Below, one piece after another: positions 1 to 5,466 of a stretch of 64,000 nucleotides of DNA. Position numbers and translations under genes: made by a program. Where the stretch lies: positions 1 through 64,000 of IMG/VR virus record IMGVR_UViG_3300037483_001148. The stretch is one strand, 5' to 3'. Below the pieces are notes generated by a model, which was given only the letters and a program-made list of their open reading frames with translations, did no database searches and was not told where the DNA came from. Numbering within the stretch: the first letter of the stretch is position 1; each line of letters starts with the position of its first letter. The stretch comes from a virus.

Positions 1-1239
1 ACCGTTACTATCGGTGTAGGTACGTGCTTCGGCAATGACAGCTTTCACCCGGTCTTCTGCCCCTTGCTTCTCAAGGGCCAGGATACGCTGGTTAGCTGCT
101 TCAAGCTTCAACTGAAGTTCAGTAGATTCTTCTACCGTTTCAACTTCATCAGGCATATCTTCCTCACTTTCCTCAAATAAGTTTTGAAATTCTGGCTCTT
201 GAGCCATTTCATCCAAAGCGGCTAACATTTCCTCAGCCGTTTGTTTATCTACTTTGTAATACCCTTGCTGAACGGGCAGGTCAAATTCCGAAAAGTCATA
301 CTGATCGGAATCAAACCAAACAAACTCTTCATCTTTTCCTTTTTCGGTATATTCAGATAGAAGTTCATATACTGGTGCAAGGGAAGTTAGAGTAATCTCC
401 AATTTCTTCATTTTTTTAGCTGGTGGAAACTTACCGTACTTCTTTTTCTTAATAGATGTTTTTGCGGGAGTATTAGTTGTCTTTTTCGCACCAAATTTCG
501 GCTTAACATTTACAAGTTTACCAAACACCTTTTTCATCGTTAGTTTAACGGTCATATTCGCCTCTTCTTTCTCCTCTAAATCATCTGAAGATAAATAAGT
601 TTGTTTAAGATTGGATTTATAATCGGGATGAAATTCCATCGAGGCATGGCGAAACTTACCGTTCTCAATGAGGGCTACCGAATCATCTCCGGTTGGAATC
701 CCATAAGCAACTAAGAGTTCGCCGGTAGGATCAGCTATTCCCGGTTTGTCCCCCTTTTCTCGCTGGACAAACCCCCCATGCTTTTTCTCAAATAATGCAA
801 TTGCCCCATGATCGGGCAAATGCTTGGGATCAAGCACAACTTCAAAATCCCCAACCCCTTTATCATGATTGAGGATAAATTGATCGAGGATTAAGCCGGT
901 CATATCCAAATCACCTTGCGGGTGGGCATATAATCCGGTTCGCATCATCGGCACTCGAATAAATTTTTTACCCCCAATTTCAGTAACAGACAGGGGATGT
1001 TCCTTAAGTCTAATATGAGGACGATTGGTTACAGCACAACCCAACCAAACAGGATTCTTCATAGCTAGAGCCAACTGCATAATTTCTCCTTCCATTTTGG
1101 CATCAGATACGTTGGCATACAATGCTTTCATCATACGCATTGTATCTGGTCTTTTGGAATGACATGACCCTTTAACTAAAGAGCCATCTTCTTTCCCTAA
1201 TCAATGTTTTTTGCCTTGTTTTACGATATTATACGGCAT
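1..1239 (-). CDS. Mu gpI-like prohead protease/scaffold, partial (runs off left edge); in-frame TGA at 1203-1201; internal start with strong SD at 1080
   Basis: Hand translation: MPYNIVKQGKKH*LGKEDGSLVKGSCHSKRPDTMRMMKALYANVSDAKMEGEIMQLALAMKNPVWLGCAVTNRPHI...RTGLYAHPQG...VLDPKH...KFRHASMEFHPDY, then an acidic coiled-coil scaffold-like region. Frame is open from 1200 to 1. Not in the ORF track because there is no stop inside the window. Confidence 0.8.
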
Positions 1240-1246
1240 TAGCATA

Positions 1247-1279
1247 AAAATAGGGCCAGTCGCAAAATGGACTGACCCT
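1247..1279 (-). terminator. terminator-like hairpin in the protease leader
   Basis: AGGGTCAGTC-cattttgc-GACTGGCCCT-ATTTTT between the promoter and ATG 1239. Confidence 0.45.
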
Positions 1280-1307: not shown

Positions 1308-1336
1308 ATTGTAGCATCTTTTGTTATATTTGTCAA
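1308..1336 (-). promoter_or_regulatory. sigma70-type promoter for the protease/capsid operon
   Basis: TTGACA-17-TACAAT on the minus strand, with TG before the -10. Confidence 0.7.
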
Positions 1337-4881: not shown

Positions 4882-5466
4882 TTAGCTCCCAAAATATTTA
4901 TCCACAATAACTTTTATTTTAGCCATAGCCTCTTTAGCAGAAGTATCAGGAGTGGGTTCTGTAGCTACTTCAGACACATCTTGCCACACTACAAAGAAAG
5001 AGTGATGCCCGTAAGTGTTTCCAGGCGCTTCATCCGGCAATCTAGTATTCACATTCACAATTCGATCACTTTCAACCTCTTTACCATTTACTGATTTTAC
5101 TTCAGCCCAAATGGTTTGATTAGCCCAAATGACTATATTACCATAAGCTTCATTTTCAGGCTTATCCAAAAGAATAGGTCTGCTTTCTTGGTTTGGTAGT
5201 TGCCCTTCCCAACCCCATTCTATATAGACGTTCTTATGTCTATTTCCATTTTCATCAACTACTTCCATAAAGAGGTTATGTTTACCTCCATTTTCTTGTG
5301 GAGTAAATTTACGAATACCTATAATACGAAAGCCGGATTTAGTTGATGGAATTTGTACTATTTTCGGAACTAAATTTTCAGGCAAATTTGGGGGGTAATC
5401 ATTATTTATGATGCCGTTTTTATAATCTGCTATAAACTTTTTAATATACTCTTGGTATATGGTCAT
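4882..5466 (-). CDS. beta-rich domain of the kind seen in Chloroflexi secreted/cell-envelope proteins
   Basis: NGGKHNLFMEVVDENG..W.W.G...LDKPENE..GN....SDRI...PDE.PGNT.GHHSF.VVWQ; family recognised from memory only. Confidence 0.5.
   Translation of the reverse strand: MTIYQEYIKKFIADYKNGIINNDYPPNLPENLVPKIVQIPSTKSGFRIIGIRKFTPQENGGKHNLFMEVVDENGNRHKNVYIEWGWEGQLPNQESRPILLDKPENEAYGNIVIWANQTIWAEVKSVNGKEVESDRIVNVNTRLPDEAPGNTYGHHSFFVVWQDVSEVATEPTPDTSAKEAMAKIKVIVDKYFGS

Follow-up and report, generated by a model that had tools for sequence, protein, structure and literature searches.

An in-frame TGA at the head of a phage capsid-protease gene raises the question of whether this codon is read as selenocysteine (Sec), as the initial annotation had proposed, or simply stops translation. 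The window analysed here is a stretch of 64 kb, the first part of a 100,045-bp linear IMG/VR viral record (~80% complete, 40% GC). Reading of its minus strand gave ATG(1239) MPYNIVKQGKKH-TGA(1203-1201)-LGKEDGSLVKGSCHSKRPDTMRMMKALYAN, and the same frame leads on to an ORF of over 380 codons that is open at position 1. This confirmed that the TGA lies in frame with the protease and that its decoding as Sec would produce the residue spacing U13-x12-C26. The features of the region are collected in Table 1. On the evidence set out below, we hold an ordinary, tolerated nonsense allele to be a likelier explanation of this TGA than a selenocysteine codon, with a confidence slightly better than even.

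Table 1 Features of the region around the in-frame TGA (window positions).
Feature	Positions	Strand	Details
Sigma-70-type promoter TTGACA-17-TACAAT, TG-extended	1308..1336	minus	11/12 consensus matches
Terminator-like GC-rich hairpin and U-tract in the 5' leader	1246..1279	minus	10-bp stem; ends 6 nt before ATG 1239
N-terminal module, 45 codons	1105..1239	minus	HMM match with Cys at the TGA; ATG without SD
In-frame TGA, codon 13	1201..1203	minus	falls in the alignment column of the module's first conserved Cys
Hairpin 3' of the TGA	1156..1196	minus	upper stem 1187-1178/1173-1164, loop AGUU 1177-1174
AAGGAG (1091-1086), 5-nt spacer and ATG 1080	1078..1091	minus	likely main translation start
Capsid-maturation protease core domain	595..1059	minus	residues 61-215 of P0001; modest fold matches
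Disordered basic linker, small domain and long scaffold-like helix	1..594	minus	from pLDDT and secondary structure; gene cut

TGA otherwise serves as a normal stop in this genome, as had been noted: it terminates 45 of the 122 ORFs of at least 100 aa, and translation with code 11 gave 90% coding. Recoding of TGA throughout the genome (codes 4 and 25) or in late genes only was rejected on this stop usage and because a sense reading inflates overlapping ORFs. No other read-through candidate was found in the genome, where no gene ending in TGA has a coding-like extension, and the sole upstream read-through case proved to be an ordinary ATG with an SD. Read support for the TGA, a check that the initial annotation had called for, came from Logan contigs of a single run. 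The sole public run containing the stretch is a sediment metagenome that may be the window's own source sample, and its 22-kb contig carries the same TGA at a k-mer depth of ~10 with no variant, to the extent that contigs, which hide minor variants, can reveal one. The TGA might in principle be an artefact or a minority allele in a population that really carries TGT or TGC, given the depth of ~10 and a confirmation from one run, maybe that of the window itself, that would not be independent; however, two different assemblers gave TGA with no variant, and a consensus error at ~10x is rare, which renders this explanation very improbable.

The initial annotation had placed the TGA in a small head-protein module, and this module proved to be real. 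We combined the window and L001, a related 95-kb metagenome contig, in a profile and searched 1.84 billion cluster representatives with it; 223 matched at E≤1e-3, with the consensus MP[WY]xIxKxGxx[YFH]C[VL]xK...G(G)CHxxRxxAxxxMxALYAN. The module almost always begins at residue 1 of its carriers, which are proteins of 45 to ~1,360 aa and often Mu-like_Pro proteases, and it also occurs as a stand-alone protein; no Pfam or PHROG family was found for it. The window's TGA aligns, as proposed, with the first Cys of the module, a residue that 137 of 143 module representatives carry (>95%). Within this set the two cysteines were tightly coupled, since both were present in 137 representatives, neither in 5-6 and a single one in none, a pattern that suggests a disulfide or a metal site common to both. 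In one close relative (P0005), the module may be present twice, as residues 1-75 seem to start within one copy (..KCHPTRRKALAHLQALEIN..) and to continue into another, complete one; this would mean either that tandem duplication of the module is possible or that the start was called wrongly.

Outside of the TGA, the window's module is intact. When scored with Cys at the TGA by a family HMM of 132 members, from which the window and its close kin were left out, it reached 74.4 bits, within the range of Cys-bearing relatives (74-79) and near the family median of 78. Over the 40 codons that separate the TGA from ATG 1080, codon usage was gene-like (LLR 0.34, a value reached by 0.08% of off-frame windows), and all coding indels relative to L001 were multiples of 3. 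Because the TGA is the sole lesion in an otherwise intact module, the stop is either recent or else translated. Intact, gene-like coding after the TGA would also suit a functional leaky stop, at which a near-cognate tRNA (Trp or Cys) reads the UGA at a few percent and some module-bearing protease is made. Among bacterial stop codons UGA leaks the most; Q-beta uses it in this way for its A1 protein, and a nested short form would be available here from ATG 1080. On the other hand, Trp would break a Cys pair that is never found single, and the fourth base here is U, which after UGA forms a comparatively strong termination context according to E. coli data. The arrangement occurs in no relative, and programmed leakage is not distinguishable here from incidental leakage. 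We regard a functional leaky stop as distinctly improbable.

The label of prohead protease given to the downstream gene was supported by both synteny and fold. Among 5.8 billion clustered proteins, nine homologues of the window protein were found, and neither Pfam nor PHROG returned a match to it by sequence. The core domain (residues 60-216) was modelled with AlphaFold at a pLDDT of 83; its best PDB matches were T4 gp21 (Z 5.7, rmsd 4.5, 109 aa) and then the VZV protease (Z 4.1), both with modest scores, and its matches in BFVD were to capsid maturation protease / XkdF at E values of 1e-3 to 1e-2. A Foldseek search of the whole model against the PDB gave nothing significant. The core-domain alignment contains invariant His and Ser columns. 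Downstream of the gene in L001 lie a 141-aa ORF and then the gene for a Phage_cap_E / phrog_29 major head protein. Relatives of full length have 512-585 aa, and since the window gene is truncated at the first base of the record, the record does not include the decoration and major capsid genes that would be expected beyond it. Taken with this synteny, the modest but coherent fold match of the model makes "prohead protease/scaffold fusion" a reasonable label.

Folding analysis bore out the hairpin described in the initial annotation, which begins 13 nt past the TGA: the upper stem of 10 bp includes 2 G-U pairs, the lower GGAA/UUCC pairs extend it to 1196-1156, and the MFE is -16 kcal/mol. The loop G-U was found at +28/+29 (U of UGA = +1), not ~23 nt from the UGA as first described. 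Comparison with several null sets suggested that the hairpin is not distinctive and that its stability is as expected for the coding sequence of this peptide. Relative to dinucleotide shuffles its z was -2.4, with 5 of 200 shuffles folding as well. The fit to the bacterial SECIS model that had been claimed holds under loose criteria, as a filter made for this analysis was passed by 4.9% of the genome's TGAs, including the one here, but 7.3% of all 4,090 TGA triplets in the genome fold as well downstream, and 12% of synonymous recodings of the same peptide with the genome's codon usage were as stable. Fifteen low-GC Cys-bearing modules had a mean of -11.3, one of them reaching -21.5, and a hairpin as good was formed by roughly 1 in 8 to 1 in 15 of the Cys-bearing low-GC modules. 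The equivalent place in L001, which has TGC, folds to -10.8 and forms no such hairpin. Heterogeneity among bacterial SECIS elements has been stressed in published work, in which Cys/TGA pairing serves as the standard criterion of homology for selenoproteins and predictions based on SECIS and on Cys/TGA both yield many false positives (PMC12013277).

Alignment of homologues, suggested initially as a check for Cys/TGA alternation and hairpin conservation, showed neither among the close relatives. The first Cys is present in 6/6 close module-bearing relatives (P0002-P0006, P0011), and L001, the only module-bearing relative with DNA available, has TGC, an SD and no such hairpin; a UGA with the hairpin, kept or co-varying, was not seen in these relatives. 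Close DNA relatives were not found by blastn in the phage collection, by protein in IMG/VR, or in GTDB genomes, and the JGI metagenomes yielded only the relatives L001-L003. We also scanned 2.9 million IMG/VR contigs, with the window's own record left out, for module patterns obtained by back-translation. When TGA was required between the N-terminus and the CH motif, no fewer than 119 loci matched, and among the matches listed the TGA was out of frame in 117, in frame in one (L025) and a chance match in one. A stricter pattern gave L025 and L123, which are identical there, and a pattern with TGA fixed at codon 13 gave nothing in IMG/VR. Control scans of IMG/VR for stops at W3 (TGA), at the second Cys (TGA) and at Y41 (TAA/TAG) revealed no real case. 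The coincidence of stops at the first Cys, which is based on one extra lineage, is suggestive.

This extra lineage, one Mu-like prophage unrelated to the window phage, was the only other one with TGA at the Cys among the matches listed from IMG/VR and 185,579 species genomes. Identical prophage sequence is present in two IMG/VR contigs from different metagenomes, and positions 321-470 of L025 equal L123 and L124 (G001:C47, ~47,280-47,421, minus strand), the last of which lies in a Gallionellaceae MAG. The L124 contig (50.6 kb) carries bacterial genes at 1-28 kb (CbiM, GCV_T, autotransporter, PhoH-PIN, histidine kinase, GGDEF-EAL) and, beyond them, the Mu-like prophage with Portal_Mu and Mu-like_Pro; the link between this prophage and its host is credible because the bacterial genes are on the same contig. 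In the Gallionellaceae host genome, selD adjoins selU (selenouridine trait), and the MAG, which may be incomplete, yielded no selA, no selB above the cut-off and no tRNA-Sec. Its best tRNA-Sec candidates were Ser and Leu tRNAs, and selB was present in 2 of 61 genomes of the MAG's family. The L025/L124 module scored 53 bits, the family minimum, and a GTG directly after its TGA opens a 627-aa Mu-like_Pro ORF. Because this host appears to be without selA, selB and tRNA-Sec, Sec decoding is not needed for a TGA to arise at this codon, and the second lineage thus argues against Sec. Observations that the initial annotation had itself named as speaking against a selenoprotein were thereby made in part: the relatives have Cys and L001 lacks the hairpin, and the host, that of the other lineage, lacks these three genes.

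Sec-decoding genes were also sought in the phage, in which no tRNA-Sec (Rfam), selB or selD was found. MuF and PAAR were likewise looked for in its genome and are absent. ARAGORN detected no suppressor tRNA in the 100 kb, which contain only 2 tRNA-Met and 1 tRNA-Ile. A tRNA-like element was observed at 48174-48311, with a T arm, an acceptor-like stem closed by a small loop, a D arm, and an anticodon-like arm whose 9-nt loop CUUUCAAAA is centred on UCA. It is located in a Y-RNA-like array, adjoins the two tRNA-Met genes, and received no tRNA call from ARAGORN. We rejected this element as a UGA decoder on account of its closed acceptor stem and Y-RNA-like context; it looks like a YrlA-type tRNA mimic.

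The leader of the gene folds to -18.7 kcal/mol (z -3.5), a value matched by 0 of 200 shuffles. The promoter is followed within ~25 nt by the strong terminator-like hairpin, and this order is kept in L001 (4880-4990; ~54% protein identity), where a promoter TTGACT-17-TAATAT occupies the equivalent place and the hairpin is preserved (-27.1, z -4.2). The leader looks like that of a late operon controlled by antitermination (lambda pR'-tR'-like), or else like a hairpin that stabilises the 5' end. No SD was found before ATG 1239, in agreement with the initial annotation; SDs precede 55-71% of genes in this genome versus a background of 9%. Compared with L001, the window is without a 12-nt stretch that contains an SD (AAGGA), and it is for this reason that the leader hairpin comes so close to ATG 1239. 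The internal start that had been noted at position 1080 was found with a strong AAGGAG at the spacing given in Table 1, which is optimal. Relatives without the module (P0007-P0010, L002, L003) begin at MK/R-N/R-PV, 6 codons after ATG 1080, so that a Sec-independent product equivalent to a natural form appears well provided for. Between the module and the protease core of L001, an SD-like GAGGAAGGA precedes an in-frame ATG-ATG (5120-5150), and a nested short isoform may thus date back to the ancestor of the family.

If the TGA is an ordinary nonsense allele, it would have arisen by a fairly recent TGY-to-TGA substitution, and the N-terminal accessory module of the protease/scaffold gene in which it fell would be dispensable. 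Lacking an SD and with the leader hairpin immediately next to it, ATG 1239 would initiate inefficiently, and the ribosomes that do begin there would stop after 12 residues. The working protease/scaffold would be made from AAGGAG and ATG 1080, with an N-terminus close to that of relatives that never had the module, and the hairpin would be a by-product of the codons for ..EDGSLVKGSCH... The use of ATG 1080, the dispensability of the module in this phage and the recency of the substitution are what we infer. Several points count against such an allele, namely the intact module with its gene-like codons and multiple-of-3 indels, a stop at the exact codon expected for Sec with none at the control codons in IMG/VR, and a hairpin at the permitted SECIS distance with GU in its loop. 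In addition, as the Cys is never single (137 both, 0 single), any reading of the UGA that inserts neither Cys nor Sec leaves a state seen nowhere else.

Under selenocysteine decoding, SelB would act on the hairpin at 1196-1156 in a Sec-competent sediment host, with Sec inserted at UGA 1203-1201, which we consider unlikely; the further proposal of a minor long isoform with a U13...C26-H27 site, beside a bulk of short isoform from ATG 1080, is doubtful to the same degree. We still entertain Sec for two reasons: nothing else in the module is damaged, and the stop falls on the one codon where Sec is expected. The position of the TGA at a Cys conserved in >95% of representatives, with both flanks conserved, is in its favour, as are the permitted distance and loop G-U of the hairpin, the absence of stops at the three control codons across IMG/VR, the recurrence of the TGA in a second assembly, possibly of the same sample, and the sediment origin of the sample. 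Against it, the hairpin does not appear to exceed chance, the case is a singleton with Cys in 6/6 close relatives and no co-varying hairpin, the only start able to use the UGA is without an SD, the phage has no Sec genes, the same-codon TGA of L025/L124 lies in a genome without selA, selB and tRNA-Sec, and the prediction approaches are known for high false-positive rates (PMC12013277). The selenoprotein reading won no support additional to that in the initial annotation; its hairpin looked ordinary and the six close relatives all have Cys. A tolerated nonsense allele accordingly stays the explanation that we prefer.

In E. coli fdhF, the SECIS loop carries G23/U24. The stem-loop here likewise stands a short way (13 nt) past the UGA and has G-U in a 4-nt apical loop; however, this G-U is at +28/+29 versus +23/+24, and there is no bulged U. 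Like bacterial genes with an in-ORF SECIS (fdhF; bSECISearch consensus, PMC12013277), the locus has an in-frame UGA at the Cys of its homologues with conserved coding on both sides. Unlike them, it has a hairpin that is not above coding nulls, no TGA-bearing orthologues, no covariation, and a UGA in an N-terminal accessory module behind an SD-less start. The gene resembles lambda C / Nu3 in being a protease/scaffold gene directly upstream of a small decoration-like gene and a Phage_cap_E major capsid gene (in L001) and in having a strong in-frame internal SD and ATG from which a shorter product is possible. It differs from them in that there is no sequence similarity, the core appears to resemble the T4 gp21 / HK97 / XkdF fold and not the ClpP-like S49 fold, and the internal start removes the N-terminal module and not the protease. 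Among capsid-maturation proteases (T4 gp21, herpesvirus assemblin, XkdF and Mu gpI, PF10123), the best structural matches of the core were T4 gp21 and the VZV protease, XkdF was among its BFVD matches, and the module is also fused to Mu-like_Pro proteins; no Pfam/PHROG sequence match was obtained here, and the Z scores were modest. Q-beta A1 provides a further parallel as a phage structural gene with an internal UGA and coding beyond it, but the Q-beta extension is C-terminal and its read-through is demonstrated, in contrast to a putative readthrough at codon 13 of an N-terminal module.

If Sec were inserted at this codon, selenium would be present in a phage head-assembly protein, and this would suggest a redox or metal role for the unnamed module. 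No report of a bacteriophage selenoprotein was found in the literature searched, and the only viral selenoproteins named in one review are two poxvirus glutathione peroxidases (PMC8310308). The locus also carries a caution, in that a TGA at a conserved Cys together with a hairpin is not enough on its own, because the same codon is TGA in a prophage of a host genome without Sec-decoding genes and the codons of this peptide tend to form such a hairpin. As a by-product, the analysis brought to light a domain at the N-terminus of head proteases and scaffolds that has no name and whose cysteines are both present or both absent.
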